Made by a program: the position numbers and the translations under genes
Assembly: GCA_025210775.1 (NCBI GenBank)
Contig: JAOARB010000010.1
Location: forward strand, 39,502 to 103,501
Direction: 5' to 3'
DNA length: 64,000 nucleotides
DNA from: Prolixibacteraceae bacterium
Lineage (GTDB): Bacteria; Bacteroidota; Bacteroidia; Bacteroidales; Prolixibacteraceae
The notes under the pieces: model-generated
What the model was told of the DNA's origin: nothing
What the model saw: only the letters and a program-made list of their open reading frames with translations
Databases searched by the model: none
Shown: in pieces, positions 1 to 45,485 of the stretch
How the letters are laid out: each line of letters begins with the position of its first letter
How positions within the stretch are numbered: position 1 is the stretch's first letter

Positions 1-148
1 CAAATTACAGATTTTTGTAAGTATATATTAACCTGTATTGCATCCTACATGAAAGTTATAAAGTAACGATAATAATTGGCAATATTTTTATTTGTTACTA
101 TAGAGCAATTATTTTAGGTCATTATTTACAATTTAAATATTATTCCAC

Positions 149-156
149 TACTTTTG
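149..156 (+). promoter_or_regulatory. candidate Bacteroidota sigma-A -7 box (TAnnTTTG) upstream of asd
   Basis: TACTTTTG lies 72 nt upstream of the ATG at 228. Motif match only. Confidence 0.3.
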
Positions 157-227
157 TATCAAATGATAAATAAAACAACAATCATTGGATAAATAAAAAA
201 TAGTTTTAATGATATAATTACGGTCAT

Positions 228-1238: not shown

Positions 1239-1305
1239 TATAGAAAAACAGCACTAAATACACTACAGACTCTCTTATCACAAAAGACAGACTGTATAAT
1301 AAAAA

Positions 1306-1343
1306 AGAAGCTAATCATTTCATTATGATTAGCTTCTTTTTTT
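1306..1343. terminator. bidirectional intrinsic terminator between asd and hflX
   Basis: 13-bp perfect stem AGAAGCTAATCAT/ATGATTAGCTTCT, flanked by an A-run on the left and a T-run on the right. Confidence 0.6.
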
Positions 1344-1346
1344 AAA

Positions 1347-28316: not shown

Positions 28317-29558
28317 ATGAAATCACTTTTTGATATAGAAGTATGGTATGAAATCTTCATAACCATTAAAAAGAACAAGCTACGCTCCTTTCTTACGAGT
28401 TTCTCCATAGCCTGGGGTATATTTATGCTAATGATACTCCTGGGATCTGGTAATGGACTTCAAAATGGAGCCAAAAAGGAATTCCAGGGTGATGCACTAA
28501 ATACCATATGGGTCTGGACAAGAACGACAAGCAAAGCCTATGATGGATATCCCAAAGGAAGAAGAATAAAACTTCAAAATGAAGATTTCCATATCATAAA
28601 AAACGAGATTGCGAATATTGACCAATTATCTGCAAACTACTATATGGGGGCAACACCCTTTGCATATAAAAATGAGACGGGTAGTTATTCTATCTTTTGT
28701 TGTTACCCAGCAACCAAAACAATCGACAAGATTGACATGTTAGAAGGTCGATTTCTTAACGATCTTGACATTAAGTTAAAAAGGAAAGTAATTGTCATCT
28801 CAAAGAAAGTAAAAGAGAGTCTTTTCAAAAGAGAGAATGCCCTTTCTAAATATATTATCATTAAAAATGTACCATTTAAAGTAGTAGGTGTAGCTGATGA
28901 TAAAAATGACGAAACATCTCCAATGATTCCTTTTACAACATATCAATCTATTTTCCAGAAGACCAATAGAATTCATAACTTAAGCCTTACAACCAAGCAG
29001 ATATCCTTGGCTGAATCTGAAACCCTAGAACAGGAGATACGAAATAGAATGGCACACAAGCACCATTTCGATCCTACAGACACCAGAGCATTGGGAACCT
29101 ATAATAACTATGCGTCGTTCCAAAGAACAATGAAGATATTTATTGGCATAAAACTCTTTATATGGTTAATCGGTTTTGGAACATTAATGGCTGGTATCGT
29201 AGGTGTTAGTAATATTATGCTGATTATCGTCAAAGAAAGAACCAAAGAGATCGGAATACGTAAAGCACTTGGAGCGAAACCGTTCAGTATTATTGCATTG
29301 ATACTTCAAGAATCTATTTTCCTGACCATTACAGCAGGATTTATTGGAATGTTATTCGGAGCAGGAACCATGAAATTAGTGCAACTAATTATGGAATCGA
29401 TGCAAGTAGATAGCTCCTTCTTTGTAGACCCTACAGTCGATATGAGGGTTGCTATTAGTGCAACAATAATGCTTGTGATTGCAGGACTCATTGCTGGATA
29501 TATTCCAGCAAGAAAAGCTGCTAAAGTAAGTCCAATAGAAGCCTTACGATACGAATAA
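28317..29558 (+). CDS. ABC transporter permease (FtsX/MacB-type), copy 1
   Basis: 413 aa. N-terminal TM, a large periplasmic domain, and a C-terminal FtsX-like 3-TM block (IVKERTKEIGIRKALGA). Confidence 0.88.
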   Translation: MKSLFDIEVWYEIFITIKKNKLRSFLTSFSIAWGIFMLMILLGSGNGLQNGAKKEFQGDALNTIWVWTRTTSKAYDGYPKGRRIKLQNEDFHIIKNEIANIDQLSANYYMGATPFAYKNETGSYSIFCCYPATKTIDKIDMLEGRFLNDLDIKLKRKVIVISKKVKESLFKRENALSKYIIIKNVPFKVVGVADDKNDETSPMIPFTTYQSIFQKTNRIHNLSLTTKQISLAESETLEQEIRNRMAHKHHFDPTDTRALGTYNNYASFQRTMKIFIGIKLFIWLIGFGTLMAGIVGVSNIMLIIVKERTKEIGIRKALGAKPFSIIALILQESIFLTITAGFIGMLFGAGTMKLVQLIMESMQVDSSFFVDPTVDMRVAISATIMLVIAGLIAGYIPARKAAKVSPIEALRYE

Positions 29559-29582
29559 ACATCAATCTAGAAAAAAGAAACT

Positions 29583-30845
29583 ATGTTCGATATAGACAAA
29601 TGGAAAGAGATATGGGCCGTTCTATCACGAAATAAGCTCAGAACATTCCTAACTGCATTCGGTGTATTCTGGGGAGTCTTTATGCTTGTTATTATGCTTG
29701 GTGCAGGTTACGGATTTGAGAAAGGCATATTTGGCCAGATTGATGGAGTAGCTACCAATTCCGCTTTTATGTGGAGCCAAAATACGACTGAAGCACATGA
29801 CGGATTCAAGAAAGGAAGATCTTGGAATATAGAGATTAATGATATTGAGGTAATCTCAAAAAAGGTATCCAACTTAAAATATATTGCACCACGTATTGGA
29901 CTGTATAAGAAGTTTAAAGATGGGATGAATATCTACTATCAAGATAAGAAAGGAAACTACTCTGTCAACGGAGACTACCCTGTCTATCAAAATATTGATC
30001 CTTTTCTAATCTTGTCTGGTCGCCATATCAACAAATTTGACATCAATGAAAAAAGAAAAGTATGTGTCATAGGTAAAACCGTAGCAGAAGACCTGTTTGG
30101 AAAGCAAGAGAGCCCACTAGGGAAATACGTCAATATCGTTGGGGTCTACTTTAGAGTCATCGGAGTTGTAGATGCAGTATCACAGATGGGATTAGGAGGA
30201 CGTAAAGATAAATCTATTTATATCCCTTTTACAACCTTGCAACTAGCATATAACCTAGGGGTAAATGTAAATTTCTTTATTCTAACAGCAAAAGATGGAG
30301 TAGATGTCTCTTCTGTAAGTAAAGAGATCGCTTCGATCCTAAGGAAAAGACATAATATATCACCAACAGATGAAACAGCCGTTGGCTCTTTCAATCTTCA
30401 GAAAGAGATCCAGAAATTCGAAGGACTTCTGGGGGGGGTAAAATTACTTATATGGATTGTAGGTATAGGAACGCTACTAGCTGGAGCTATTGGCATCAGT
30501 AATATTATGCTGGTGGTCGTAAAAGAACGTACCCAAGAGATCGGAATACGAAGAGCTTTAGGTGCAAGAACATATCAGATATCATCACAATTAATTTTAG
30601 AAAGTGCAACGATTACAGCTATTGCTGGAGTATTGGGAATTATGTTTGGAACCTTTGTCTTATCATTAATTGGTATGGTATTAGCCAATAGTCCAGACAG
30701 CTCATTCCTAGCAAATATGGTAATTGACTTTAAATTAGCCATAATGTCATTAACCATCATTATTATCACAGGTATCCTTGCTGGAATAATACCTGCCCAA
30801 AGGGCACTATCCATCAAGCCAATAGAAGCATTAAGAACAGAATAA
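29583..30845 (+). CDS. ABC transporter permease (FtsX/MacB-type), copy 2
   Basis: 420 aa. Same architecture as copy 1 (VVKERTQEIGIRRALGA). Confidence 0.88.
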   Translation: MFDIDKWKEIWAVLSRNKLRTFLTAFGVFWGVFMLVIMLGAGYGFEKGIFGQIDGVATNSAFMWSQNTTEAHDGFKKGRSWNIEINDIEVISKKVSNLKYIAPRIGLYKKFKDGMNIYYQDKKGNYSVNGDYPVYQNIDPFLILSGRHINKFDINEKRKVCVIGKTVAEDLFGKQESPLGKYVNIVGVYFRVIGVVDAVSQMGLGGRKDKSIYIPFTTLQLAYNLGVNVNFFILTAKDGVDVSSVSKEIASILRKRHNISPTDETAVGSFNLQKEIQKFEGLLGGVKLLIWIVGIGTLLAGAIGISNIMLVVVKERTQEIGIRRALGARTYQISSQLILESATITAIAGVLGIMFGTFVLSLIGMVLANSPDSSFLANMVIDFKLAIMSLTIIIITGILAGIIPAQRALSIKPIEALRTE

Positions 30846-30865
30846 AACGATTATTAGACCATATT

Positions 30866-31951
30866 ATGAAAAAAGTATTCAAGATAATTATCATCATCGC
30901 AGTCCTTGCTAGTGTTATTGGAACATTTGCTTACATATATCAGAAGTCTCAACCTAAAGAGGTAGCTTATGAGATCCTTGATGTAAAGAATGACACAATC
31001 GTTGTTAGTACTATAGCAACAGGGGCTGTAGTACCGAAGAAAGAGATCGCAATCAAACCGCAGATCGCAGGTATTATCAGTAAGATATACGTTGAAGCAG
31101 GAGACACTGTTAAACAAGGACAGATCATTGCTAAAGTAAAGATTATTCCAGATATGGTTAATCTAAACAATGCCAAATCGAGAATTAAGAAAGCACAGAT
31201 TCAATTGGAATCTAGTCAAAACAATTACAATAGAAATGAGACTTTATTCAAAAAAGGAGTAATCTCTGAAGCTACTTTCATTGAATCAAAACGTAGTTAT
31301 GATGCCTCTAAAGAGGAGTTGAAAGCATCTAAGGATAATCTGGATCTAATTAAGGAGGGAGTAACCAAATCAACTTCAAATCAAACCAATACACTTATCC
31401 GCTCAACCATTGATGGGATGGTGCTTGATGTACCTGTTAAAGAGGGAAATTCTGTAATCCAAAGTAACTCCTTTAATGATGGTACAACCATTGCACTTAT
31501 TGCAGATATGCAAGATATGATCTTTGAAGGTAATATAGACGAGACTGAGGTAGGTAAGATTAAGATTGGTATGCCAATGGAATTGACTATTGGAGCAATG
31601 AATCAAGAGAAATATGATGCTACCATTACACATATTGCGCCAAAAGGAACTAACGATGGAGGTGCAGTACAATTCAAGATTAAAGGAGCAGTAAAGCTTG
31701 CAGTAGACCAATTTATCCGTGCAGGGTACAGTGCAAATGCGAAGATTGAAGTGGAAAGAAAAGAAAATGTATTGTCTATTCCAGAATCGACAATCTTCTT
31801 CGAAAATGATTCAAGTTTCATATGGACTGCCAAAGATAAAAAGGGAGAATATGAGAAACAATATGTGGAGCTAGGATTGTCTGATGGTATCAATGTTGAA
31901 GTAACTGAAGGGGTAACCAAAGAGACAAAAGTTAGAGGAAATAAGAAATAA
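30866..31951 (+). CDS. efflux periplasmic adaptor subunit (HlyD/MacA family)
   Basis: 361 aa. N-terminal TM, a lipoyl-like block (IAGIISKIYVEAGDTVKQGQIIAKV), a coiled-coil hairpin, and a beta-barrel domain. Confidence 0.88.
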   Translation: MKKVFKIIIIIAVLASVIGTFAYIYQKSQPKEVAYEILDVKNDTIVVSTIATGAVVPKKEIAIKPQIAGIISKIYVEAGDTVKQGQIIAKVKIIPDMVNLNNAKSRIKKAQIQLESSQNNYNRNETLFKKGVISEATFIESKRSYDASKEELKASKDNLDLIKEGVTKSTSNQTNTLIRSTIDGMVLDVPVKEGNSVIQSNSFNDGTTIALIADMQDMIFEGNIDETEVGKIKIGMPMELTIGAMNQEKYDATITHIAPKGTNDGGAVQFKIKGAVKLAVDQFIRAGYSANAKIEVERKENVLSIPESTIFFENDSSFIWTAKDKKGEYEKQYVELGLSDGINVEVTEGVTKETKVRGNKK

Positions 31952-31996
31952 TCTCATAAAAGAAGCATAAACTATTTCCACAAAAAAGAAGACAAA

Positions 31997-33334
31997 ATGA
32001 AGAATAAACCTATATACTTATTGCCGATAGTGTTTTTGTTCTCTCTATCACTTTCTGCACAAGAAAAACAAAAAGATAGATGGGACCTGACTCACTGTAT
32101 TGAGTATGCAATACAAAACAACAGTAGCATTCAGAAGCAAAGGTTAGATATTGATATTTCAAGTAATAATTACGAGAGTTATAAACTATCTAAACTGCCT
32201 TCTGTTTCATCTGATATAAATAATACGACCTCATGGGGACGTACATTGTCGAATGATAACACCTATATAAATAAAAACTCAAATTCGACAACATTTAATG
32301 TTAACGCAAGGGTTAAACTGTTTCAAGGTGGTGCTCTAAAAAATCAAATACGTCGATCGAAATACGATCATGATTACCAAGGTGATATACTAAAAGTTAA
32401 AGAGTCAAACCTATCCCTTCAAGTAACTGAGGCTTATCTAAATATATTGGTTGCCAAAGAGATGGTAAATCTGGCAAAAGAGCAAATTGAGATTACTGAA
32501 AAGCAGATCACCATTACAAAGATTAAAGTAGAAGAAGGATTGATTGATAAAGGCCCGTTATTAGAGCTAAAGACACAATTAGCAAACAATGAAACGGAAA
32601 AGATCAATGCTCAAAACAACCTAGAATTAAGACAACTTGAGTTGGCACAACTTCTAGAATTAGAAAATCCATCTGTTCTAAATATTCAGATTCCGAAGTT
32701 GGCCTTATTAAACTCTGAGATGCAACTAAATGAGGTAACCAATTATTATACAACAGCTCTCGATCTAAGACCAGAGATCCAAGCAGCTAAAACAATGATA
32801 AAAAGAGGTGAGGTCAACACCAAAGCAGCAAAAGGAGAATTATATCCAACGATTTCTGCAGGTGCAAACTACTCTAATGGTTACTATTACTATAAAGGTG
32901 AAAAGAACACAGGGTTTTCTGATCAAATGCAAGCCAATGGGCGTGAAAACGTTAGTCTAGGTGTATCAATCCCTATTTTCAATGGGAAAAGAGCTAAAAA
33001 CGCCTATAAGAACGCAAAAATACAAGAACAGAAATCTAAGATCGATTTGATCCAAGCTGAAAAAGATCTTCGTAAAACAATTACCAATGCTCTGACACAA
33101 GCCAAAGGGGCACACCAGAAATATACGGCAGCGTCTACGCAAGTGAAAATGAGTAAAGAATCGTTCTATTTCGCAGATCAGAAATTTAATGCTGGTGCAA
33201 TGAATATCTACGATTATAATCAAGCAAAGAATAGCTTTATAAGAGCGAAATCACAAAAAATACAATCTAAATATGAGTTCATCTTTAGAACAAAGATGCT
33301 TGACTTCTATGTAGGCAAAGAACTTAAGTTCTGA
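31997..33334 (+). CDS. TolC-family outer-membrane efflux protein
   Basis: 445 aa. Signal peptide, LTHCIEYAIQNN start, and two repeated alpha/beta halves typical of OEP/TolC. Confidence 0.88.
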   Translation: MKNKPIYLLPIVFLFSLSLSAQEKQKDRWDLTHCIEYAIQNNSSIQKQRLDIDISSNNYESYKLSKLPSVSSDINNTTSWGRTLSNDNTYINKNSNSTTFNVNARVKLFQGGALKNQIRRSKYDHDYQGDILKVKESNLSLQVTEAYLNILVAKEMVNLAKEQIEITEKQITITKIKVEEGLIDKGPLLELKTQLANNETEKINAQNNLELRQLELAQLLELENPSVLNIQIPKLALLNSEMQLNEVTNYYTTALDLRPEIQAAKTMIKRGEVNTKAAKGELYPTISAGANYSNGYYYYKGEKNTGFSDQMQANGRENVSLGVSIPIFNGKRAKNAYKNAKIQEQKSKIDLIQAEKDLRKTITNALTQAKGAHQKYTAASTQVKMSKESFYFADQKFNAGAMNIYDYNQAKNSFIRAKSQKIQSKYEFIFRTKMLDFYVGKELKF

Positions 33335-33922: not shown

Positions 33923-34900
33923 TTAAAAGAAATAGCTTGATCTTCTTCGATAAGATCTTCTTCGTTTCTTTGAAGGGATATCGTAACTAATCATAAATTC
34001 GTGAGTACTAGGAAAGCTATTGGTGTCTTCTAGTGCAGTCATATCATATGAGTATCCTAGTCTGATTTCCTCAGTGACATCATACTGCATGCTCATACCG
34101 AAAGAATTCCCTGTTCTATACATGATCCCAGCAGTAAAATTCTCATAGAATGTACCAAATACATGAAGATCAGCCGCTAAGTTGGAGCTTCTAATATAGC
34201 GGATTGTACTTCCTACTTTCATTGTAATATCTCTATCTACTTCAAATTTATAAGCTCCTAAAAGATAGATATGAAGCATATCTTTATTGATAGAGGTACG
34301 AGAAACTTCTTCAACAGAAACTTTATTCTCTATTAACTTAGGTATAGAAAGACCCACAATATAGTCTTTAGCACGAAACATAACTCCTAAACCAATATTA
34401 GGGAGGAATTCTGAATTAAGATCGTTCATAAAAGCAGGATCGTCTTGATTCTCTCCAATTCCTTGGATATTGGCATAAAATAGATTGAATCCTGCAGAGA
34501 TACCAAAGCTCAAATACTTTCCTCTACGAGGATCAATATCCAAATGATAGGCATAGTCTCCATATAGCCCGACCTGCGTAATTGGGCCATAGCTATCATA
34601 AAGCATACGACCACCAATTCCCATTTGTCCATCAAGATAAGGCATGGTAAAAGCAAGAGACGAAGTTGTAGGTGCACCATCAAAACCAGTCCATTGGTGT
34701 CTAGTCAACAACTTAATATTCATTGCTTCTTGTACTCCAACATAGGATGGATTTATGGTAGCCAGATTATTTAAATACTGGCTATACAAAGGATCCTGTT
34801 GGGCTTTTGTTCGAATTGAGAACATGCAGATTAGTAGGAGTATTAGGAACGAAGTGCGTCCTTCTTTCCACATACGATATATCTTATCACAGTGTATCAT
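33923..34900 (-). CDS. T9SS membrane protein PorP/SprF family
   Basis: 325 aa. AQQDPLYSQYLNNLATINPSYVG and FLPNIGLGV are typical of PorP/SprF. It lies directly downstream of a type-B CTD cargo gene. The real start may be MWKEG at 34873. Confidence 0.88.
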   Translation of the reverse strand: MIHCDKIYRMWKEGRTSFLILLLICMFSIRTKAQQDPLYSQYLNNLATINPSYVGVQEAMNIKLLTRHQWTGFDGAPTTSSLAFTMPYLDGQMGIGGRMLYDSYGPITQVGLYGDYAYHLDIDPRRGKYLSFGISAGFNLFYANIQGIGENQDDPAFMNDLNSEFLPNIGLGVMFRAKDYIVGLSIPKLIENKVSVEEVSRTSINKDMLHIYLLGAYKFEVDRDITMKVGSTIRYIRSSNLAADLHVFGTFYENFTAGIMYRTGNSFGMSMQYDVTEEIRLGYSYDMTALEDTNSFPSTHEFMISYDIPSKKRRRSYRRRSSYFF

Positions 34901-34917
34901 CTTTTCTTAGATCAACA

Positions 34918-36333
34918 TTATTTGCTTATGTATATGTACCCTTTCTTAGTTGAATAATTGTCAGTCTTCAAGATATAGTAATAAGTTCCTGAAGGTACAA
35001 CATTCCCTTTACTCATTCCTTCGGTGGCTATTCCATCCCACCATGAAGTCTCGCCATCCAATCCATATCGATTACTCTTGTAAACCAGATCCCCCCATCT
35101 GTTATAGATATGAATTTCAGATTGTTCACAGAATTGAACTGCTTTGACTACAAAGCGATCATTAATACCATCTCCGTTTGGAGAGAACCCACGAACGACT
35201 TGAAGTTCTCCAGCACGTATCATGATGCGGACGTACTCAGTGGAACAATTTCCTTGTAGGTCACAAATTTCATATTCAAACAAATCTTCTCCAATATAAT
35301 TATCCTCTGGTATATATTTTATCAAACCTTTAGAAACCAGTGTTGCGGTACCATGTAACGGTGGAGTTAATACTTTCAATGAAAGAGTATCCATGTCGTT
35401 ATCTAAATCATAGTCGTTAGTCAACACTTTAAAGTCAATAAACAAACGCTCTTTTGTAATACCAATATCTTCTTTGGTAATCGGAGCTGTACCATCTTGT
35501 TCAACCACGTAATCAAGGACATCTACACATCCATTACGGTCCATTACTTTCAATCGATAAGTCCCCGCTTTGCGTACAATCAGTTTAGAAGGATCACTAT
35601 TATCCACATGCCCATAATCTTGAGCATTAGGATCTGTATTACTCCAATAATAAACCAAATGACTTCCCTCACTAGCAATGGCATCAAGTAGTACCCAAGA
35701 ATCAAACTTAATCTTGTTTGGTCCTTTGACGATAGCACGAGGAGCTGGGTCAAAATTGATTATCTTCTCTACCTGCTCAGAAGCACCATACTTATCTGTA
35801 ATCTTTAACCATACTTTGGTAGATTCCGTAGCACTATGTTTTCTAAAAGTAGGTTTTGCAATATATGGATTGTCAAAATGTATCTTTGGTCCCCACTCAT
35901 ACGATAAACGTTCTCCAGTAGAACGTGAACCATCTAACTGTAATGTGGACTTACAACTTCCAATAAAATCTTTTCCTGTTATCTTGGCTTCTAGAACAAT
36001 ACCTACTTTAATCACCATTTTAGTGATCTCTCCAGGGCAGCTATTCTCACCTTGGGCAGGCACAACACTTAATTCATAAGTACCTTCTTGATTAAAAAGG
36101 ATTAATTCTGAAGTGGCAGATTGAGACTTTACAGTATAGCTCATAGGAGCACCTTCCAATGTTTTTATTAACCATTGGTAAGTATACGATGGATCATCAA
36201 TCGATGCTTTAAAACGGTGCACCGACCCTCTATTAATAGTTACATCAGGAGTGATCGATTGACTTCGAACAACCCCTAGTGTAACTACCATAAGGCAGAA
36301 AAAGGTCCATATTTTTATACTAATCAGTCTCAA
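34918..36333 (-). CDS. T9SS type-B sorting-domain protein (gliding-motility-associated C-terminal domain), operon paralog 5
   Basis: 471 aa. The C-terminus GFSPNGDGINDRFVV...IYNRWGDLVY...WWDG...PSGTYYYIL...KGYIYISK matches the type-B CTD. There is an internal cadherin/tandem-95-like segment (TNDYDLDNDMDTL...GTATL). The N-terminal module is shared with the four upstream genes. Confidence 0.88.
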   Translation of the reverse strand: MRLISIKIWTFFCLMVVTLGVVRSQSITPDVTINRGSVHRFKASIDDPSYTYQWLIKTLEGAPMSYTVKSQSATSELILFNQEGTYELSVVPAQGENSCPGEITKMVIKVGIVLEAKITGKDFIGSCKSTLQLDGSRSTGERLSYEWGPKIHFDNPYIAKPTFRKHSATESTKVWLKITDKYGASEQVEKIINFDPAPRAIVKGPNKIKFDSWVLLDAIASEGSHLVYYWSNTDPNAQDYGHVDNSDPSKLIVRKAGTYRLKVMDRNGCVDVLDYVVEQDGTAPITKEDIGITKERLFIDFKVLTNDYDLDNDMDTLSLKVLTPPLHGTATLVSKGLIKYIPEDNYIGEDLFEYEICDLQGNCSTEYVRIMIRAGELQVVRGFSPNGDGINDRFVVKAVQFCEQSEIHIYNRWGDLVYKSNRYGLDGETSWWDGIATEGMSKGNVVPSGTYYYILKTDNYSTKKGYIYISK

Positions 36334-36353
36334 GAATATTATTTTTTAAGAAT

Positions 36354-37082
36354 TTATTCCATTATAATTTTACCAGCACGTGGTCGTTTCTTCTGTAAGA
36401 AGTCAATATTTTTTTGATCTTCTACAATCCTAATAGCCAAACCATTACTTGTCTGTGCATTGACTAAAACAATAGAATAGCGATGGTCCTCATCTAGGTC
36501 ATTAATCTTTAGATTTAGACCCATCGCTTCATCATCTCTGTCTATCATTATATCTTGTACACCCATATCCTTATTGTCTTTAAATACTTGTATCGAAAGA
36601 CGTAAAGGAAAATACCTGTCGTATGTAGATGATTGCTTCTCAATCTCTTTTTCTATCGTCAGATCCAATGGTAAAGGATCTCCAATAGAAGTAGCACAAG
36701 CCTCTTGGTTCGTATTAGCAAAACCTAAAGTCATGTTATTAGGAAGAATCTTCAGTATCAATATTCTAGTATTGGTACAACCTCCTAACTCAGAGTTCAC
36801 TCTCAATACAAAATCACCAGGTTTCTTGAATACACAAGATACAGCTGAAAAGTGAGCAGGGCCCACAAATGCAGCAGCATCATTAGAAGAAGCAAGGGTA
36901 GTCAAACTATAATCGGAATATAACAACCAGTTATAGTTGCTCCCCAACACCTCTTCTACGCTAAAACTATGAATCTCCCCTTCGACTAAGCGATAACTCT
37001 CCTGCCCCATTACAGAGAATGGAGCAAAACAACAACACCACATCAAAAAGAGAAATGCCTTATGTCGGAAAGTTTGAGTCAT
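36354..37082 (-). CDS. secreted two-domain protein, operon paralog 4 (no recognisable CTD)
   Basis: 242 aa. Signal peptide cleaved before Gln (VMG-QES). Shared module IHSFSV...YNWLL...GDFVLRVNSELGGC, with a second Cys 26 residues later. Confidence 0.75.
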   Translation of the reverse strand: MTQTFRHKAFLFLMWCCCFAPFSVMGQESYRLVEGEIHSFSVEEVLGSNYNWLLYSDYSLTTLASSNDAAAFVGPAHFSAVSCVFKKPGDFVLRVNSELGGCTNTRILILKILPNNMTLGFANTNQEACATSIGDPLPLDLTIEKEIEKQSSTYDRYFPLRLSIQVFKDNKDMGVQDIMIDRDDEAMGLNLKINDLDEDHRYSIVLVNAQTSNGLAIRIVEDQKNIDFLQKKRPRAGKIIME

Positions 37083-37113
37083 ATTATAGCTTAATGAGTA
37101 TATAGATTTTTAA

Positions 37114-37941
37114 TTATTCAAATGTAATTCCACTGATTGCGTGACGCTTAACTGTAGCACCATCTTTATCATTCGTATTGTCAGATTCAGCAACTGTTTG
37201 ACCAACGATCTTTTGCGCAGTCAACATAAGTGCTGGCGTAATCTGTGCAACATTGTTTGTAGAGTTATCATACTTCTTAGTATTCTCAACTGTAGCTGTA
37301 AGAAGGATATCTGCTGCATCTCCTGTACCTGTTACAGTATAAGTTTCATCTCCATTGTCAACGATGTTAACACCTGCTTTAGCAGTAGCAAGATTTGCCA
37401 ACCTAACATCTGCAAGAGCTTCTAGACTAACTACAGTAGACCAACCATTTGTAGCTCCAACACCATCAATTGTCAAATTATAACCTACAGAAGCACTACC
37501 ATGGTTATAAACAACGTTTCCGCCTTCGATAGATGGAGTAACTTGGTTTGTATAACAAATTGGATCTTTAGTAACTGCCGCAATCATCATATCAAATGTA
37601 CTTGCAGTAATCGTTACTGGTAAAATACGTAGGTTTTTACATCCACCTATTTCATCTTCTACTTGTACATAGTAAATATCATTAGCATTCAAAGTTGAAG
37701 CCCAGTCAATAGTTACTGTTTTTGTTGCTTCTCCTGCTAATGTTACATCAGCAGCATTTGCATCAACCAATTTTCCAGTACCATCATCAACTTTAACAGA
37801 CCATGAATATGCATGTCCTGGGACTTCAGTCACCTTATATTTATGTTTCGCTCCTGGGAAAGGATTATCCCCTGTTGATTGAGCGTAAGATGCTATGCTA
37901 GCTACTGCTAGCACCATCATACTTAGTAAAATTCTTTTCAT
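37114..37941 (-). CDS. secreted two-domain protein, operon paralog 3 (no recognisable CTD)
   Basis: 275 aa. Signal peptide (YA-QST). Shared module HKYKV...YSWSV...DIYYVQVEDEIGGC, with a second Cys 27 residues later. The second half is T/V/A/G/N-rich. Confidence 0.75.
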   Translation of the reverse strand: MKRILLSMMVLAVASIASYAQSTGDNPFPGAKHKYKVTEVPGHAYSWSVKVDDGTGKLVDANAADVTLAGEATKTVTIDWASTLNANDIYYVQVEDEIGGCKNLRILPVTITASTFDMMIAAVTKDPICYTNQVTPSIEGGNVVYNHGSASVGYNLTIDGVGATNGWSTVVSLEALADVRLANLATAKAGVNIVDNGDETYTVTGTGDAADILLTATVENTKKYDNSTNNVAQITPALMLTAQKIVGQTVAESDNTNDKDGATVKRHAISGITFE

Positions 37942-37960
37942 TATATATAGCTATTTGGTT

Positions 37961-38743
37961 TTATTTAAAAGTAATATCAGAAGTGTTTGGAAGACCTTTG
38001 ATTGTTCCACCAACTTTAGATCCAAGATCGTTAGCTGTTACTACAGTAGTTCCTTCTGTTACAGTAGATGCTGTGACACTAAGCATATTTGTTACATCTA
38101 AATCTATTGGCAAAGCTTTATAAGTAACCGTTACAGTAACTTTATCTCCTGCAACTGCAGTTACAGATGTTCCTGTTAGTGTACCTGTACTCAATGTAAT
38201 TTCAGGAGCAGTAGTATATGCAGCACCTTCAACTGTTGGCTCATTTAATAGATCAAATGCCCAAGTACCTGTTGTTACATTTTCTCTTGTAATATCATAT
38301 GTAAAAATCAAATCTTGAGTATCACCTTGTACATGAACATTTCCAGACTCAGGATTACAACCTAGTGTTGTTGTGTTTGCAACGATTACGTTAAACGTGT
38401 TGCTTGCAAGAGTAATAGGAAGTTCTCTTACAGAAGCACATCCTCCAGCTGTTTCAACAAATCTAAGAGTATAGTCTCCATCAGTTAACCCAGTATAGTC
38501 AATAACAATATTTTGTTTGTCCGTTACTGTTATATTGCTAGAAACATCAGTGTTGTCCGCTTTCTTAAGGGTCCATACTCCTGCGTTAGCAGCATTCTCC
38601 ATGGTAATAGAATAGTTATATTTACCACCAATCATAGGTTTACTACCGTCAGTTAAACTTTGTGCATTAACACCCAAAGCCAGCGTAAAAAGGAATAAAA
38701 TAAATGTTAGCTTCTTCATCATAATTGTTTGTATTTCGATCAA
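37961..38743 (-). CDS. secreted two-domain protein, operon paralog 2 (no recognisable CTD)
   Basis: 260-aa ORF. The likely start is MMKKL at 38722. Signal peptide (VNA-QSL). Shared module YNYSI...GVWTL...GDYTLRFVETAGGC, with a second Cys 26 residues later. Confidence 0.75.
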   Translation of the reverse strand: MIEIQTIMMKKLTFILFLFTLALGVNAQSLTDGSKPMIGGKYNYSITMENAANAGVWTLKKADNTDVSSNITVTDKQNIVIDYTGLTDGDYTLRFVETAGGCASVRELPITLASNTFNVIVANTTTLGCNPESGNVHVQGDTQDLIFTYDITRENVTTGTWAFDLLNEPTVEGAAYTTAPEITLSTGTLTGTSVTAVAGDKVTVTVTYKALPIDLDVTNMLSVTASTVTEGTTVVTANDLGSKVGGTIKGLPNTSDITFK

Positions 38744-38756
38744 CTACTTAAATAAA

Positions 38757-39539
38757 TTAATATCTTATATTACTTGGTCTTGGTGAACGATTAACTGTAA
38801 TATTATATACAGGTATTGATGTTTCAGAACTACTATAACCGTCACTTGCAATGAAATAGACTCTATACACTCCTGGTACCAATTCAGAAGGTGCTTGGTC
38901 AATATCTTTCGCTTCTACAACATCCCCACTCTCATTCACAATCTTATAACTCTTTGTTACTGTATCTCCAGTATCAACATCATTTACATTTACACCTGAA
39001 AAATCAAATACACCTCCAGCATTCCATCTTCCACTTGTCTCATCCGCACATTCATTCCGATCAACAGTGGCAAGACCCCAGAAATATGGTTTGTTGTTTA
39101 ATCTCACATAAATTCTAGAAACCACTCCACTACAATGAGTTGCATTACTTGCATCTACACTTGTTTGTGTAACATCCACAAAACCACTATTTCGATAAGG
39201 ATCTGTACTCCACTTAACACGTACAGTAGATATTCGAGAAGTAGTTAAAGTTTCTGTTTTATGAATCCAACCCGAAGATTCACTTATTCCTCCATCAATA
39301 GTCCATTGAATTCTATCATTCTTATAATCTTCCACGCCAAGATCATAATTAGTCGATGCTTCAATAGAGAACTCTTTTGTTTCTCCTTTGTTACATACTA
39401 AAGGATTTTCTCTTGATCCTAATTGACCAGCAGGCAATGTATTTATGGAGCCAGATGTTTGACCCAAAACAATCCCAGAGAAGCACATCACTCCTCCTAA
39501 TAGAATAGGTCTTATATATTTCATCAATCTGTCTCTCAT
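38757..39539 (-). CDS. secreted two-domain protein, operon paralog 1 (most divergent; no recognisable CTD)
   Basis: 260 aa. Signal peptide (VLG-QTS). KEFSI...IQWTI...GFVDVTQ...THC, with a second Cys 27 residues later. Confidence 0.7.
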   Translation of the reverse strand: MRDRLMKYIRPILLGGVMCFSGIVLGQTSGSINTLPAGQLGSRENPLVCNKGETKEFSIEASTNYDLGVEDYKNDRIQWTIDGGISESSGWIHKTETLTTSRISTVRVKWSTDPYRNSGFVDVTQTSVDASNATHCSGVVSRIYVRLNNKPYFWGLATVDRNECADETSGRWNAGGVFDFSGVNVNDVDTGDTVTKSYKIVNESGDVVEAKDIDQAPSELVPGVYRVYFIASDGYSSSETSIPVYNITVNRSPRPSNIRY

Positions 39540-39622
39540 AATTAGATATAAGTAATCTTTAACTCTGTTTTTAATAAAAATTGTGGGATTAATAAATCAG
39601 ATATGTTTATCTCTTCACAACA

Positions 39623-39630
39623 CAAACATA
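39623..39630 (-). promoter_or_regulatory. candidate -7 box TATGTTTG upstream of the T9SS cargo operon
   Basis: The minus strand reads TATGTTTG, about 84 nt upstream of the ATG at 39539. Motif match only. Confidence 0.25.
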
Positions 39631-40384
39631 GGATATAGAAGTTTATCTTACAAGTAGATTAAGACACACTACTCTTAATTTACAATAAACATTTTTTTTA
39701 GGCAATAACAACTTATTCTGTCCTATCACGGGGAATAAGTAGGACAAAACTAAAAAAATGCTGTCATAATAAGACATTTCACTTTTTTAAAGATTGTCAC
39801 CATTTTTAAACTCTATGTCATATATAAATAATAAGAAATCAGATAAAAAAAACACAAAGGATCACTATTCACAACACTCAAATACAACACAAAAATCACA
39901 TTTAAAACAACTGAATAACAACAACTTAAAAGACAACAAATACAAACAGCAAATGACAACACAAAACATCAAGAATTAGATATGACAAAAGAAATAAAAA
40001 AATATGTCATACTATTTTTACAATTAAATGAAAGTAAAATCAGTCATTACGTAATATGACAGCTAATCCTTTACAGGTAAGAAAAGGCTCGATTTAGAGA
40101 CAGAAAATCACTATGTTAATAAATTGTTAATTTTACTAAAGAAAAGTATTTTCAACAAAATAGAGTAGAAAACATAATATTTCTCATTTACCCATACACA
40201 CAATTATTGGCAAGTATCGATACATTTATCGATATAATTCTTGTAATATTTTGACAGAAGAAAGGTTGTAACGAATGGTTAAAATTAAGTTAAGCACCAA
40301 CACCACCATTGTGTGGTAAAGATACAAAAAAAGAGGGACCCAACCTATGGCATCCCCCTTATGAATTCACATGTAAAATATTGT

Positions 40385-41929
40385 TTATTTCGATTTCAAT
40401 ACCACGAATGGTACTAGCATCTCCTCCATTGATACGCCTCCATGTTGAAAAGTATCATAATATGTAGCCGAAAATTGGCTAAAGTTATTTTTGTAAACGA
40501 AATAATCCCCAGGCTTACCAAAGATATACTTGGTAGATACTTGTGGGTGTGGCAAACCTACTTCTACTGGTTTACTGATCTCGAAGACATTTTTAGATGG
40601 ATATTTTAGATTTCTCCCCAACTTATATCGAAGGTTCGTATTGGTATTCTTCTCACCTTGTATCTTTACGGCATTCTTAACACGTGTCGTCCCATGATCC
40701 GAAGTCAATACGATATGAATATCTTCAGAAGACAATTTCTCAAGAAGTTCAAGTAATTGTGAATGTTCAAACCAGCTACGAGCAAGAGAACGGAATGCAG
40801 CCTCATCTGCGGCCAACTCCTTTATCATCTCCATGTCTGTTCGTGCATGCGAGATCATGTCGATAAAATTGATTACAAGAACAGAGAAATCAGATTGAAC
40901 AATCTTTGAATAATGATCTAAAACTTTCCCTCCTGAAGTGGCATTAGAAGCTTTAATAAACTGTACACTCTCTTTACGACGAGAACGTTCAAACTGCTTT
41001 ACAAGAAGGGTTTCTTCATGGAGATTTTTAAATCCACTTTCATCTTCTCCAACCCAACAATCAGGATACATTGAAGCTATACGCTCTGGGGTTAATCCAG
41101 CAAACAAACTATTTCTAGCATACATAGTAGCCGTAGGCAGAATACTACAACACACCTCCTCTTTAATCAAAGAATAGCGCTCAAGTATCATCTCTTTAAT
41201 TGCCAACCAATGATCAAATCTCAAATTATCAACCACCAGCAGAAACACCTTCTTCGATTGATCCAACAAAGGGAAAACTCCTTTAGATATGGCATTTACA
41301 GAGTTAAGTGAGAAATTCTCGATCCCATCTTCATGCCAATCACAGTAGTTACGTTGAACGAACTTAAAGAACTCTTGGTTTGCCTCTTTCTTTTGCATCG
41401 AAAGGATTTCATCCATTGTGTTATCCCCACTCTCTGAAAGTTCCACTTCCCATTTCTCTAGTTTCACGAAAAGTTGTTTCCAATCTTCCATAGAGACACA
41501 CATATTGATCTCTTGAGAGAGTTGCATAAAAGATTGTCTATAATCGGTAGTCAGCTTCTGTTTTACCAATCGTCGATTATCAAACACTTTCTTAAGACAC
41601 AGAAGTATCTGAGCAGGACGCACAGGCTTAATAAGGTAATCTGCGATTCTTGAACCAATGGCTTCCTCCATCACATTCTCTTCCTCACTTTTTGTAACCA
41701 TCACCACAGGAAGAGAATCATCATATTCTTTTATTAAAGGCAAAGTTTGAAGTCCAGTAATACCTGGCATATGCTCATCTAAGAACACAATATCAAAGCT
41801 ATTTTCTTTGATCATATCCACAGCATCATGCCCATTCGTTGCCACATCCACATCATATCCTTTAGATGTCAAGAATATAATATGAGGTTTTAGCATCTCG
41901 ATCTCATCATCTACCCATAATATCTTCAT
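40385..41929 (-). CDS. porX: T9SS response regulator PorX (CheY-like receiver + PglZ/alkaline-phosphatase-like domain)
   Basis: 514 aa. Receiver MKILWVDDEIEMLKP...DIVFLDEHMPG...VVMVTK. The C-terminal PglZ-type domain carries VVDNLRFDHW and VLTSDHGT. Domain order and length match PorX. Confidence 0.8.
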   Translation of the reverse strand: MKILWVDDEIEMLKPHIIFLTSKGYDVDVATNGHDAVDMIKENSFDIVFLDEHMPGITGLQTLPLIKEYDDSLPVVMVTKSEEENVMEEAIGSRIADYLIKPVRPAQILLCLKKVFDNRRLVKQKLTTDYRQSFMQLSQEINMCVSMEDWKQLFVKLEKWEVELSESGDNTMDEILSMQKKEANQEFFKFVQRNYCDWHEDGIENFSLNSVNAISKGVFPLLDQSKKVFLLVVDNLRFDHWLAIKEMILERYSLIKEEVCCSILPTATMYARNSLFAGLTPERIASMYPDCWVGEDESGFKNLHEETLLVKQFERSRRKESVQFIKASNATSGGKVLDHYSKIVQSDFSVLVINFIDMISHARTDMEMIKELAADEAAFRSLARSWFEHSQLLELLEKLSSEDIHIVLTSDHGTTRVKNAVKIQGEKNTNTNLRYKLGRNLKYPSKNVFEISKPVEVGLPHPQVSTKYIFGKPGDYFVYKNNFSQFSATYYDTFQHGGVSMEEMLVPFVVLKSK

Positions 41930-41990: not shown

Positions 41991-44900
41991 TTACTTCACA
42001 ACAGGCATCTTGTTTTTTCTATAGAATAATCGATATTGATCTATCTTTTTATTCCTTAGCAAACGTCTTAGGTTTTCATCAGAGATAATCATCACCTCCT
42101 CAACAGAAGGTACAATACTTTTCTTAAATCGATCCAATTCAGCAATCTGGCTCAAATAGTTTGTCGCCTTCTCTAGGTTAGACAAGCCTGTTACGACAAC
42201 AAAAGTGTTAGAGCTATTAAAATCCTCTACTTGTACTTTATATCCACGTTGTTTTAGATCCTTAATATGAACAAACATCAACTGTTGTCTCACCTTATTG
42301 ATCCTACGAGTATCTTTCGTTGTCATAAAGATAATCGCATGTTGTATATCTTCTCTATCTGTAAAAAGATCCTCAGCCATATCAACGTGGACAACCTCTT
42401 CTTTAGGTTCAACAACCTCTTTATCTAAAGGAACATCCGAAGCAACTTCTTCTTTTGTTGTAGAGACATTACTTTCCACTTTCTTCAACTCATTATCAGG
42501 TGTAACAGATGACGCAACTGGCTGAGACTCATTTTTCTCTATAGCCTCACTACTCTTGTTTGTTCCGACAGCAGTAGTCACTACTGCTGTTTTAGTCGTC
42601 TGCTTACTAGCATCTACGATGTCACCAGTATCCACTTCAACAAAAGTACCCGAAGTAACAGGATTACTCTTCTGTTGCTTCATATTCTTAATCAATAGCA
42701 TTGGATCTTCTATCGTTTCACCGCTCACTTCACTTCCAATATATGGCGAGATGTTGGCAATAAAGAATTTCTGATATTCTAAAGAGCTCTTATCTTCCTT
42801 AACAGTTCTAAAGTTTTTAGACGTAATAACATAGTTTGAATATTTACGTCCATTCAGCGAAGCAAAGACACGTCTTTGATGGGTAATTGTTTCAAAATAA
42901 ACTTTAGCATAATCTTTATCCGATAAAGCTCTCACCACAATCATTACTTCATGATCATTCAACTTCTCGATATCCACATCAAAATCATCCTCTGGGAAGA
43001 AATCAATATTAAAATGAGCAATATCAAAACGTAGTCTATTAAGATCCACTGGTAATCCTGCATTTAACTCCAGAACATAATAATAGAAAGTATCTGCTGT
43101 CTTCTCGAACTTCTGATTAATAAATTCAGAACTACTCATATCAGCCACCTCTTTATTCTGGATTTCTGAATGGATATATCCATTTTTAACCATGGTAGCA
43201 AAATCTTTCAGCGACTGTTCTTTCACCAATGCTTCCAATTTATTTACCCTCTCCATCAATGGTGAAGTAGGATATTTAACCTTATAATCTTTGATTAATC
43301 TCTCCAAAGTAAGACTACCCTTGGTTGCCCCTAAAGAGACCATCTCAACATAAGCAACTTTAGGGATAAGAGTCGTATCCTGAGGACTCCTCATGATCTC
43401 CGAACTCAATGCAAGCGAAGTATTATAATCACCATTTCGCATTGCTTCTAAAGCCTCTCCATATTTCTGATCTTGGACTCTTTGCTTCTCTGCAATCTGT
43501 TCAAACGAAGAAGGATCACGTAGATACATCGCAATACGACTATCCCCATAATCATTTAATATTCTATTTCTATATCTATTTGCTTCAGCTGTACGACCTG
43601 CTTTATAGGCTATATCATAAGCATAAAACAACACGGTCAACTTAAGTTGTGGATCTGAAGTTTTTCTTAAATAAAGGTCAAACATTTCCAATGAAGCATC
43701 AATATCATGTAGGTCTTCACCATAAATTCGTGCAGCATTATAGGCAGCATTACAGATTTTCTTATTCGAAACAACAAACATTGAATCATTGCGAGGAATA
43801 TCTTTAGTATAATACTCCGCATCCATAGGAGTCAACACTTTGGTTTTCTCTTTCTTATCTGGATCCATATCCTCTCCAGTCTCCTCCTCATCGCCATTTA
43901 ACGAAGAGAAATCCCCCTCAATTTTAGACTTATTCGAACGTCTCCAATTATCAGACAATACACGCTTGCCCCAAATCTGTCTAAAGTTTGCTTTTCCTGT
44001 TGCTACAGTCGATGGATTATAAAAATACCACCTTCCTGAAGCACTAGAACGATCTTGAGAACTATTCTGGTTCATGCTCATCTGAGCATTATTTCTAAAG
44101 AATGAATTATCCAGATCGTCTTGTTGTTCTTGCTGTTTTCTCAGTTCCTCTTCTCTTTTTCTCTTTCGCTCAACCTTTATCCATTCTTTAATCTTACCAT
44201 CCAACACATCCTTAGGAAGGGCAGCCAACTGTTGCAAACTATCCTGCACCTCAATCACCTCCAAGTTTGAAGTCAAAGCGGTCAAGAATTTCGCACGTTT
44301 TTTTATCTCAATAGCATTAGGATAGCTTTCGGGTATTACAGTCACCGCAGTATCATAATAGCTTTGACTTTCTCGATATTTCTTAACATCAAAGAAGATA
44401 TCAGCCAGACGCAAAGAAGACTCCACTCGTTGGGTTGGGTTCGCTTCAGAATAGGTTACTGATTTCTTATAATAATCGATAGCTATAGAGCTCTCTTGTT
44501 TTTCCCAATAAATGTTTCCTAACGCATAATAGATACGATCTTGAAAATCTTCATTCTTCTCATCACGTAACATACGCCCCAAGATACGCTTCGACTTATC
44601 CAAATCTCGACTTCCTTGGTTCAATTCATAGATTCCTATTTTCGCATAGAAAGTCATTCTATAAGGGGTATTCAACCCTAACACTTTCTTATAATTCTCT
44701 ACTGCCTTCTCTTTTTGATCCATAGAAGCATAGAGCTGACCAAGTAAAAAACGATACCTACGACGATCCGGACCTTTCATCGAATATTTTAAAGCATTCT
44801 CCAGACGGGCAATCGCTTGTCCATAATTGTCATGTTTAATATGATAATCAGCCCATAAAAGCCCAATATCTCTTTTTACTCTTTTAGAGATCTGCTTTGT

Positions 44901-45485
44901 TGCCTCTAGCTTATGCAATAAAACAATGGCCTCCTCCTCTTCATCTTGAGAAAAATAAGATCTAGAGATCCATAGCTTCGCCTCACTAAGCACTTCACTA
45001 TATGGATATTTTTGTAGAAGCACTTGAAATACAAACTGAGCATCTTCGATTTTGCCACTACAATATAGAGCCTGCCCCTTTAGTAGGTAAGCATTATCCA
45101 CCCAATCGTTCCACTCTCCTCGCTTCATAAATTGGGCATCACCACTTCCTTTTTTAGGTTTCACTTTTATTGAATGCTCCTTTACCAGCTTATCACACTT
45201 AGCTATTGCCTTACTAAAGCTACCAGAACCAGCTCCTCTTGCCTCAGGGATATCCTCAATAAAAACAGGTAAAGGAATACTATAATCTAGCACATATTGA
45301 GACTTCACTTTTTCCATTCCTTTCTCATAAGCACTCTTGCCATTAAAAAAGACATTATAATGAGAAGTCATATTCTGAAACCTCCTAGACAAAGCCGTAT
45401 TACGAGTTGTTCCACAGCTATATAGAAGAACAAAAAGACCTAATAGAAAAAAGACGTATGTATATCGAAACTTATTTTTAAACAT
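41991..45485 (-). CDS. porW: large TPR lipoprotein, probable T9SS PorW/SprE
   Basis: 1164 aa. Lipobox LLYSCG followed by TALSRRFQNMTSHYNVFFNGKSAYEKG, which as I recall is the PorW/SprE N-terminal signature. Many TPR-like repeats and an acidic low-complexity middle. Needs HMM confirmation. Confidence 0.55.
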   Translation of the reverse strand: MFKNKFRYTYVFFLLGLFVLLYSCGTTRNTALSRRFQNMTSHYNVFFNGKSAYEKGMEKVKSQYVLDYSIPLPVFIEDIPEARGAGSGSFSKAIAKCDKLVKEHSIKVKPKKGSGDAQFMKRGEWNDWVDNAYLLKGQALYCSGKIEDAQFVFQVLLQKYPYSEVLSEAKLWISRSYFSQDEEEEAIVLLHKLEATKQISKRVKRDIGLLWADYHIKHDNYGQAIARLENALKYSMKGPDRRRYRFLLGQLYASMDQKEKAVENYKKVLGLNTPYRMTFYAKIGIYELNQGSRDLDKSKRILGRMLRDEKNEDFQDRIYYALGNIYWEKQESSIAIDYYKKSVTYSEANPTQRVESSLRLADIFFDVKKYRESQSYYDTAVTVIPESYPNAIEIKKRAKFLTALTSNLEVIEVQDSLQQLAALPKDVLDGKIKEWIKVERKRKREEELRKQQEQQDDLDNSFFRNNAQMSMNQNSSQDRSSASGRWYFYNPSTVATGKANFRQIWGKRVLSDNWRRSNKSKIEGDFSSLNGDEEETGEDMDPDKKEKTKVLTPMDAEYYTKDIPRNDSMFVVSNKKICNAAYNAARIYGEDLHDIDASLEMFDLYLRKTSDPQLKLTVLFYAYDIAYKAGRTAEANRYRNRILNDYGDSRIAMYLRDPSSFEQIAEKQRVQDQKYGEALEAMRNGDYNTSLALSSEIMRSPQDTTLIPKVAYVEMVSLGATKGSLTLERLIKDYKVKYPTSPLMERVNKLEALVKEQSLKDFATMVKNGYIHSEIQNKEVADMSSSEFINQKFEKTADTFYYYVLELNAGLPVDLNRLRFDIAHFNIDFFPEDDFDVDIEKLNDHEVMIVVRALSDKDYAKVYFETITHQRRVFASLNGRKYSNYVITSKNFRTVKEDKSSLEYQKFFIANISPYIGSEVSGETIEDPMLLIKNMKQQKSNPVTSGTFVEVDTGDIVDASKQTTKTAVVTTAVGTNKSSEAIEKNESQPVASSVTPDNELKKVESNVSTTKEEVASDVPLDKEVVEPKEEVVHVDMAEDLFTDREDIQHAIIFMTTKDTRRINKVRQQLMFVHIKDLKQRGYKVQVEDFNSSNTFVVVTGLSNLEKATNYLSQIAELDRFKKSIVPSVEEVMIISDENLRRLLRNKKIDQYRLFYRKNKMPVVK

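Follow-up and report, generated by a model that had tools for sequence, protein, structure and literature searches.

A putative modular surface-adhesin stalk encoded with a type IX secretion cargo and its shuttle in a Prolixibacteraceae bacterium

Under current type IX secretion system (T9SS) rules, a protein of the Bacteroidota needs either its own C-terminal domain (CTD), of type A or type B, or a lipoprotein export signal in order to arrive at the cell surface. A cognate PorP/SprF-like protein, encoded directly downstream, pulls type-B cargo out of the translocon and keeps it at the surface, and a PorE-like partner goes with static type-B complexes (PMC9143113, PMC12618676). In SprF, an invariant Cys-x-Cys in the periplasmic C-tail forms a disulfide link to GldK that couples SprF to the gliding track (PMC12635249). 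Here we describe a six-gene operon (g1–g6, minus strand, positions 33923–39539) within a 64,000-nucleotide (nt) stretch of contig JAOARB010000010.1 from a Prolixibacteraceae bacterium, which we call the window. This operon and its relatives elsewhere encode a large lectin or adhesin and small Ig-like proteins that have neither signal, always beside one CTD-bearing relative and a PorP shuttle. By a slight preference, we read the operon as encoding a modular multi-chain cell-surface adhesin stalk, ordered head to tail and anchored in trans through g5 and g6.

A type-B cargo and shuttle behind four CTD-less secreted proteins

The six open reading frames (ORFs) first noted on the minus strand were all confirmed at their positions, with intergenic gaps of 13, 19, 31, 20, and 17 nt that agree with the range of 13–31 nt given before. 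The closest named sequences to the operon belong to a Prolixibacteraceae metagenome-assembled genome (MAG) and to Halosquirtibacter. Judged by profile matches, the last two genes are an ordinary type-B cargo/PorP pair. The cargo g5 (34918..36333, minus strand), a 471-amino-acid (aa) protein and the proposed base of the stalk, opens with an N-module at about aa 25–115 (35989–36261) that belongs to the family described below, continues through PKD-like domains and a Big_9 domain (aa 283–370; PF17963, E 1.9e-13), and ends in a CHU_C CTD (aa 379–469; 34927–35199) that scores 83.5 bits against PF13585 (cutoff 27; E 1.1e-23) and 51 bits against TIGR04131 (cutoff 35; E 1.2e-13). Its TTG start is backed by orthologs of equal length. 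The PorP/SprF-family outer-membrane beta-barrel g6 (33923..34900, minus strand) begins 17 nt after g5 and matches PF11751 (211 bits, E 3.2e-62) and TIGR03519 (229 bits, E 7e-68). On inspection of its sequence, the SprF-type Cys-x-Cys of the periplasmic C-tail is not present in g6, whose C-tail is basic (KKRRRSYRRRSSYFF) and whose only Cys residues lie at positions 4 and 25. Because g6 lacks the tail that couples SprF to the gliding track, a stalk held by it would probably be static rather than motile. An SprB-like motile gliding-adhesin complex was ruled out on the same ground.

The four genes upstream encode secreted proteins of 242–275 aa by their ORFs, all minus strand. The proposed distal tip g1 (38757..39539, 260 aa) carries a signal peptidase I (SPI) signal, a very divergent N-module, and an HYR-like C-terminal region that terminates in SPRPSNIRY-COOH, a degenerate version of the family tail; its orthologs are one-to-one in Halosquirtibacter. 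The 260-aa ORF of g2 (37961..38743) encodes a full-length family member with the mature N-terminus QSLTDGSKPMIGGKYNYSI and the tail LPNTSDITFK-COOH (37964–37990); its true start is more likely M8 (38722), because gene callers give the resulting 253 aa and the orthologs begin MMRKL. Also full length is g3 (37114..37941, 275 aa), with the mature N-terminus QSTGDNPFPGAKHKYKV, GGC101...C129, a Y-x-HG motif, and the tail KRHAISGITFE-COOH (37117–37143). The family member g4 (36354..37082, 242 aa), of 'QExxxxEG' type, is the proposed base-proximal adaptor and ends in KKRPRAGKIIME-COOH (36357–36383). The Cys spacing originally reported was reproduced in all five proteins, with 26–27 residues between the paired Cys (g1 136/164, g2 102/129, g3 101/129, g4 102/129, and g5 99/127).

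The five signal peptides, their cleavage ends (VLG-QTS, VNA-QSL, YA-QST, VMG-QES, and VRS-QSI, from g1 to g5), and the strand motifs quoted with them are likewise all present. The Gln exposed by cleavage carries no meaning specific to these proteins, because it follows the phylum-wide Bacteroidetes Q-rule (PMC5837995). In keeping with the original prediction, which assigned a type-B CTD followed by a PorP/SprF gene to the fifth protein alone and left the four small ones without CTD or lipobox, no type A, B, or C CTD was found in g1–g4 (PF18962/TIGR04183, PF13585/TIGR04131, and the NCBIfam type-C model; E<=1). Nor did inspection find a lipobox: the signals of g1–g4 run directly into Gln, and the Cys residues in the hydrophobic (h-) regions of g1 and g4 lack a [LVI][ASTVI][GAS]C context. 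These h-region Cys are kept across orthologs, as C19 in g1 and as CCC at aa 16–18 in g4 (CFC in one ortholog), again in a context that is not a canonical lipobox.

An unnamed two-domain family with a fixed-position tail

To define the family, we searched exhaustively with HMMER, using a profile made from g2, g3, g4, and their orthologs. The search gave 352 clusters at E<=1e-3 (103 of them at E<=1e-10), and the majority are 250–300 aa long and matched end to end. A word-indexed homolog search under-reports the family, giving 10–59 matches and missing the tandem-fusion proteins described below. A hidden Markov model (HMM) built from 91 relatives outside the window's clade and searched against the mature window proteins (Z=5000) recovered g3 at 3.4e-43, g2 at 1.6e-31 (over hmm 33–275), and g4 at 3.2e-17; for g5 the value was 0.0025, over the N-terminal 70 residues only, and for g1 it was 0.16. 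Profile-profile comparison with hhalign linked the g5 N-module to the family at 99.1% (E 1.1e-18, 120 columns) and g1 at 51% (E 1.5e-4), with the same landmarks aligned. BLASTP connected g2, g3, and g4 to one another at 7.5e-10 (g2–g3), 3e-6, and 2e-4 with identities of 24–26%, linked g5 marginally, and left g1 unlinked.

On these comparisons, g2, g3, and g4 are full-length members of one real family, and g5 is a clear homolog that has the N-domain of the family only. Judged in the same way, g1 is at best a very divergent relative of marginal membership, and it looks more like a tip protein than a clear paralog. A module of roughly 90 aa had been proposed for all five proteins; it holds robustly for g2–g5, is part of a full-length homology in g2–g4, and is marginal in g1.

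Alignments of 25–101 members have a constant order of features: an SPI signal followed by Gln, the mature N-terminus Q-S-T-G-x-x-P-x-P-G-A-T-H-x-Y-x-V, two Trp and a Tyr, 'GC-x-N', a second Cys about 26 residues on (both Cys are invariant), Y-x-H-G, a variable second domain, and a C-terminal tail. Named members come from Prolixibacter, Draconibacterium, Sunxiuqinia, Halosquirtibacter, Marinifilum, and Marinifilaceae, all Marinilabiliales, to which the family is confined as far as seen. All but two are named 'hypothetical protein' in their sources, the two being a 'PKD domain-containing protein' and a 'pilus assembly protein'. The latter, the NCBI name of the Draconibacterium mangrovi homolog P0207, was set aside as uninformative, with no NCBIfam model behind it.

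Characterized families, whose existence could have explained the small proteins, do not claim them. Searches of g1–g4 against Pfam and NCBIfam gave nothing at E<=1 beyond noise, 101 family members matched no Pfam family consistently and no T9SS CTD at E<=0.01, and a PDB sequence search with the family profile returned 0 matches. Because the family profile cross-matches PKD_6 repeats of giant T9SS proteins (independent E-values of 1e-5 to 1e-8), we read the N-module, on sequence grounds, as probably a divergent PKD-like Ig domain. The g5-like protein P0146 matches PKD and PKD_4 below threshold, and PKD models in Pfam match none of the small proteins themselves (g1–g4 and the 101 members).

The conserved C-terminal tail peptide is a feature that the original prediction did not contain. 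Its consensus is P-x-T-[STG]-x-I-x-x-[ND]-COOH or, anchored on the Pro, [R/L]-P-[N/A/H]-T-[S/T/G]-x-I-[T/S/G]-[T/A/F]-[N/D]-COOH. Of 128 motif-bearing proteins, 105 place the Pro exactly 9 residues from the C-terminus, and the Ile is essentially invariant.

Twelve natural two-unit proteins of 551–619 aa, all metagenomic (P0034, P0038, P0050, P0057, P0060, P0064, P0103, P0109, P0135, P0137, P0141, and P0142), connect this tail to the other conserved end of the family. In these tandem proteins the unit-1 tail 'IPATRDITFG' is followed by a linker of 6–12 aa and then by 'QNPLQNSTHxYxV', the mature N-terminal motif; a '[LI]PAT..I' tail preceding a 'Q..P..STH' module is of identical type in fused and split forms. 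At the level of sequence, the fusions are Rosetta-stone evidence that tail and head lie close together. The tandem proteins themselves end in another motif, 'MPQ-x-G-x-L-A-G-V-[DE]', which suggests a further cognate pair of tail and N-module.

We also modeled g3 with AlphaFold2 (AF2), which gave two beta-sandwich domains at a predicted local distance difference test score (pLDDT) of 80 from 13 sequences and 82.5 from 66 sequences. In the latter model the domains exceed 90, while the tail (residues 268–275) falls below 50 and mature residues 21–30 lie at about 66, both ends being coil. These coil termini rank with the best-conserved blocks of the alignment, a pattern that, in the model, is the one expected for segments that fold only on a partner. 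Foldseek searches with the two AF2 models returned generic tandem-Ig structures only (Fabs, integrin legs, MSCRAMMs, and Gram-positive pilins; TM-scores of about 0.2–0.37), with no type V pilin within the top 50 matches.

Gene order, distal variability, and neighborhood

We compared ten independent operons, namely those of the window, H. xylanolyticus (L001), H. laminarini (L002), Prolixibacter denitrificans (L007), Draconibacterium mangrovi (L010), and metagenome-derived contigs or MAGs (L008, L009, and L011–L013). The gene order seen in the window is kept in all ten, which span at least four genera: small family genes lead to a Big_9/CHU_C protein that starts with the family N-domain, and this in turn leads to a PorP/SprF gene. 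In the nine other operons the N-domain of the CHU_C protein matches the family at E 5e-14 to 7e-33. The first gene of the operon is variable and often large (377 to >3254 aa), encoding PA14, GEVED, HYR, C-type lectin, MBG_2, or Gly-rich domains; its products have no T9SS CTD, yet they terminate in the tail peptide. The first-gene proteins of L008 and L009 finish in a complete family unit, and giant CTD-less adhesins with a C-terminal family unit and tail reach 1812 aa in L011 and >3254 aa in L009. Every CTD-less protein of these operons terminates in the tail peptide, and the CHU_C proteins never carry it. A tip of Gly_rich_2 and MBG_2 domains is encoded by one 1417-aa gene in L013 (4618–8871) and by two ORFs of 995 and 398 aa in L012 (4871–9091), with the tail on the second only; a frameshift or a pseudogene could account for this, or the gene may truly be split.

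The order of the small proteins is fixed as well. Type 1 begins 'QGG..P..STHxYTV' and has the tail NPIPNTSxITTD, type 2 begins 'QSTG..PxPGATHxY' and has the tail [SA]RPNTSxIxxN, and the optional type 3, which is g4-like, begins 'QExxxxEG' and has the tail K[RT]Pxxx-I; last comes the CHU_C protein, with the start 'QE.FVV.EG'. A g4-type ortholog occupies the same operon slot in H. xylanolyticus, H. laminarini, and P. denitrificans. Across the operons, tips have the tail and can dispense with the family N-domain, adaptors have both elements, and the base has the N-domain without the tail, a distribution that fits a chain as far as sequence can tell. Taken together, the pattern favors a stalk with an ordered tip, adaptor, and base over a homopolymeric fiber. 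In L008 (6317–8347) and L009 (18208–20256), the PorP-like gene is followed by a PorE-like gene (PD40 beta-propeller, CarboxypepD_reg, and OmpA), which the window operon lacks, a convergent efflux cluster standing in that place.

About 5 kb upstream of the P. denitrificans cassette, two ORFs (70–762, plus strand; 797–1753, minus strand) have the tail-like ends ..SAPTTGIIQRVP and ..NTPTTGTITK and no family-HMM match. From these ends, they may be orphan proteins able to plug into a stalk.

The strain comparison rests on two variants, L014 and L015; L003–L006 are near-identical and uninformative for variability. Between the window and these variants, identity is 85% for g1, 76–89% for g2, and 83–86% for g3, against 98–100% for g4, 96–99.6% for g5, 100% for g6, and 95–98% for the neighboring gene porX (for g4–g6 together, 99–100% in L014 and 96–100% in L015). 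The ratio of nonsynonymous to synonymous substitution rates (dN/dS) is 0.15–0.51 for g1–g3 (0.3–0.5 for g1), with dS raised too, and is at most 0.07 for g4–g6 and porX (0.05–0.07 for g4). Relative to H. xylanolyticus, identities are 50%, 54%, and 50% for g1–g3 and 67%, 69%, and 75% for g4–g6. The raised dN/dS and dS suggest allelic replacement or recombination together with diversifying selection, limited to the three distal genes. By these measures the evolution of the distal components resembles that of surface proteins that are exposed, selected, or recombining, and the proximal components evolve like machinery.

Directly upstream of the cassette and on the same strand lie porX (40385–41929; NF052313, 2.8e-217) and porW/sprE (41991–45485; NF052312, 2.2e-174). 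This adjacency is kept in Halosquirtibacter and was not seen at the Draconibacterium, Prolixibacter, and MAG loci; it is specific to a Halosquirtibacter-like lineage, and the cassette is therefore autonomous. Between porX and g1 lies a non-coding leader of 845 nt (39540..40384, minus strand), with a terminator-like hairpin just past porX and a Bacteroidetes-type -7 box, TATGTTTG, at 39623–39630, 84 nt upstream of the g1 ATG. Of the 13 TATGACA sites in the window, 5 fall within 300 nt of this leader (39762–40061), a cluster that looks like a putative array of regulator binding sites. The -7 box and the TATGACA sites are invariant in an alignment with the two strain variants and two Halosquirtibacter species. 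A scan for sigma-70 promoters and terminators found no enrichment, the sigma-70 model being ill-suited to Bacteroidota promoters. Phase variation through an invertible promoter was considered and rejected, with no convincing inverted repeats flanking the promoter region. On the other side of the operon, a cluster on the plus strand (28317–33334) that is convergent on g6 encodes two MacB-type FtsX permeases, an HlyD/RND-adaptor-like protein, and a TolC/OEP outer-membrane factor; the same neighbors occur in both Halosquirtibacter genomes.

The proposed stalk, its alternatives, and related systems

In the stalk that we propose, each tail would bind the following gene product at its N-terminal segment and N-domain, probably by contributing an extra beta-strand, and this docking would yield the ordered chain g1-g2-g3-g4-g5. 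The sole chain recognized by the T9SS would be g5, with the g6 barrel taking it from the translocon and holding it at the outer membrane, so that the CTD-less chains would use a CTD supplied in trans. Export could follow either of two routes: a thread-like Ig chain pre-assembled in the periplasm might pass through the translocon, or the CTD-less chains might be captured after export. The genes g1–g3 would then encode the exposed, fast-evolving distal part and g4–g6 the conserved base. A surface fiber anchored through the CTD-bearing member and its PorP had already been suggested for this locus, and the idea fits the tails, the N-domain of the CTD protein, the fusions, and the hypervariable distal genes; the physical assembly of g1–g4, their surface location, and their export route are inferred. 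More tentatively, and with rather less than even confidence, we extend the argument to the secretion system itself: the T9SS may deliver a multi-chain fiber with the CTD in trans, in which tail-strung CTD-less adhesins and adaptors are exported or captured at the surface through one type-B base and a PorP-like anchor.

Several observations weigh against this interpretation. The tails of g1 and g3 in the window are degenerate (SPRPSNIRY and HAISGITFE). The H. laminarini ortholog of g2 (L002, 6839–7906) breaks the 9-residue rule, its GLANTSDIKV being followed by an 11-residue extension, GKAAAETIGTSK, which could be a processed extension or mark a decaying subunit. The N-domain already has seven strands by DSSP, and classical donor-strand completion is not needed. 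The comparison operons were retrieved through the small family alone, with their neighbors not selected, and operons without the family fall outside the sample. Finally, the literature searched holds no precedent for T9SS export of CTD-less partners, and nothing relevant on hitch-hiking T9SS cargo or on T9SS-linked strand-complemented filaments.

Among the alternatives, the one that survives best, though we consider it unlikely, is that the second beta-sandwich and the tail form a new C-terminal sorting or attachment signal, by which each CTD-less protein is exported or attached singly (by the T9SS, by the PorP-like barrel of the operon, or by a transpeptidase resembling PorU that targets the LPxT[SG]-like motif) and no chain exists. 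The family unit and tail do stand at the extreme C-terminus of the giant CTD-less adhesins of L011 and L009, which is the position of T9SS CTDs, and known CTDs are Ig-like sandwiches (PMC11285876). The constant 9 residues to the free C-terminus, moreover, suggest a receptor that reads the terminus, and some tails contain LPNTG or LPDTG. A pure export signal, however, leaves unexplained why the family N-domain opens every type-B CTD protein of the operons; the order of subunit types and the tail types are conserved, and the tandem fusions link the tail to an N-terminus. Nor does the region resemble the models of type A, B, or C CTDs, and no hydrophobic segment or basic tail comes after its LPxTG-like motif.

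We regard it as distinctly improbable that g1–g4 are periplasmic or inner-leaflet accessory proteins, such as chaperones, assembly factors, or signaling ligands, serving g5 secretion or PorXY signaling. The position of the operon directly downstream of porX and porW in the window's lineage would suit such a role, as would the finding that in P. gingivalis the type-B cargo PorA/PG1035 on PorP feeds PorXY signaling (PMC7712824, PMC12152298), and the small proteins carry an SPI signal each, with no recognized signal for crossing the outer membrane. The cassette nonetheless occurs without neighboring porX or porW in Draconibacterium, Prolixibacter, and MAGs, and the equivalent first-gene proteins elsewhere are large lectins or adhesins (PA14, C-type lectin, HYR, and MBG) that make sense only extracellularly. 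In addition, g1–g3 are hypervariable in near-identical strains, with dN/dS about 10-fold above that of their neighbors, which is typical of exposed proteins and not of chaperones.

A mere local expansion of PKD/Ig secreted proteins beside a type-B cargo/PorP pair, with termini shared through descent and folding alone, would agree with the commonness of tandem Ig-like paralog arrays in Bacteroidota, with a structure search that yields only generic Ig pairs, and with the low pairwise identities of g2–g4 (24–26%), but we hold it to be very improbable given that the grammar and type order are kept in 10/10 operons of at least four genera, that conservation peaks in the two termini, which AF2 fails to place in the monomer, and that the tail is kept on unrelated tips without the family N-domain.

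If the stalk interpretation is correct, it defines a new protein family and its junction motif, widens T9SS cargo to hetero-oligomers that share one CTD, and adds a new class of T9SS-dependent, ordered, pilus-like stalks with interchangeable lectin tips. It would also supply a first rule for the surface placement of CTD-less proteins that are not lipoproteins in Bacteroidota and explain one class of "hypothetical" proteins found in Marinilabiliales of marine and sediment habitats. The hypervariability of the distal genes would then mark these as likely to be under phage or grazer pressure or to determine substrate specificity, and the system would amount to a natural plug-and-play scaffold for surface display. 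The literature searched, with incomplete coverage, contains no prior description of such a system.

The described systems that come closest each share part of this design. Like known type-B cargo/PorP systems, the operon pairs a CHU_C/TIGR04131 protein (g5) with a barrel (g6) directly downstream, an arrangement shown to give cognate secretion and anchoring (PMC9143113, PMC12618676), and the PorE-like gene added in L008 and L009 recalls the static complexes of this kind. Those systems are described as a single-chain cargo with its shuttle, whereas here one to four CTD-less secreted proteins precede the cargo, share its N-domain, and have a dedicated tail. Type V pili (FimA-E, Mfa1-5), which occur in the same phylum, are also encoded by operons of paralogous subunits with two beta-sandwiches each and with tip, adaptor, shaft, and anchor roles; they form a surface fiber polymerized through C-terminal strands, which the proposed stalk resembles functionally. 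Their pilins, however, are lipoproteins cut by Arg/Lys-specific proteases, while g1–g4 lack a lipobox and have Gln directly after an SPI signal; the anchor here would be a T9SS cargo/PorP pair and not an Mfa2/FimB lipoprotein, and none of the 101 family members has a FimA/Mfa match in Pfam.

The tip fibrillae of chaperone-usher pili (PapG-F-E-K) resemble the proposed stalk in being ordered heteropolymers with an adhesin tip, in which a terminal strand specifies the next partner and the operon mirrors assembly. They differ in that no usher or periplasmic chaperone gene is present here, the donor would be C-terminal, the fold is probably PKD-like, and export would use the T9SS. Giant single-chain Ig-repeat T9SS adhesins (SprB, RemA-like, and PKD_6 repeat proteins) are strings of PKD or Ig domains that end in a T9SS CTD, and it is their PKD_6 repeats that the family profile cross-matches; in the operons described here such a string is split into separate chains with conserved junctions, and fused and split forms coexist. 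Sortase-assembled Gram-positive pilins (BcpA, SpaD, and EbpC) likewise have two or three Ig-like domains and are among the Foldseek matches, and LPNTG or LPDTG in some tails recalls their motif. Unlike in those pilins, the motif here ends 5–6 residues before the C-terminus and has neither a hydrophobic segment nor a basic tail after it, the host is diderm, the TM-score is about 0.3, and no sortase was seen in the operons examined. What is new relative to all of these is an unnamed family, a tail peptide at a fixed position, and a conserved pairing of CTD-less adhesins and adaptors with one relative that bears the CTD.

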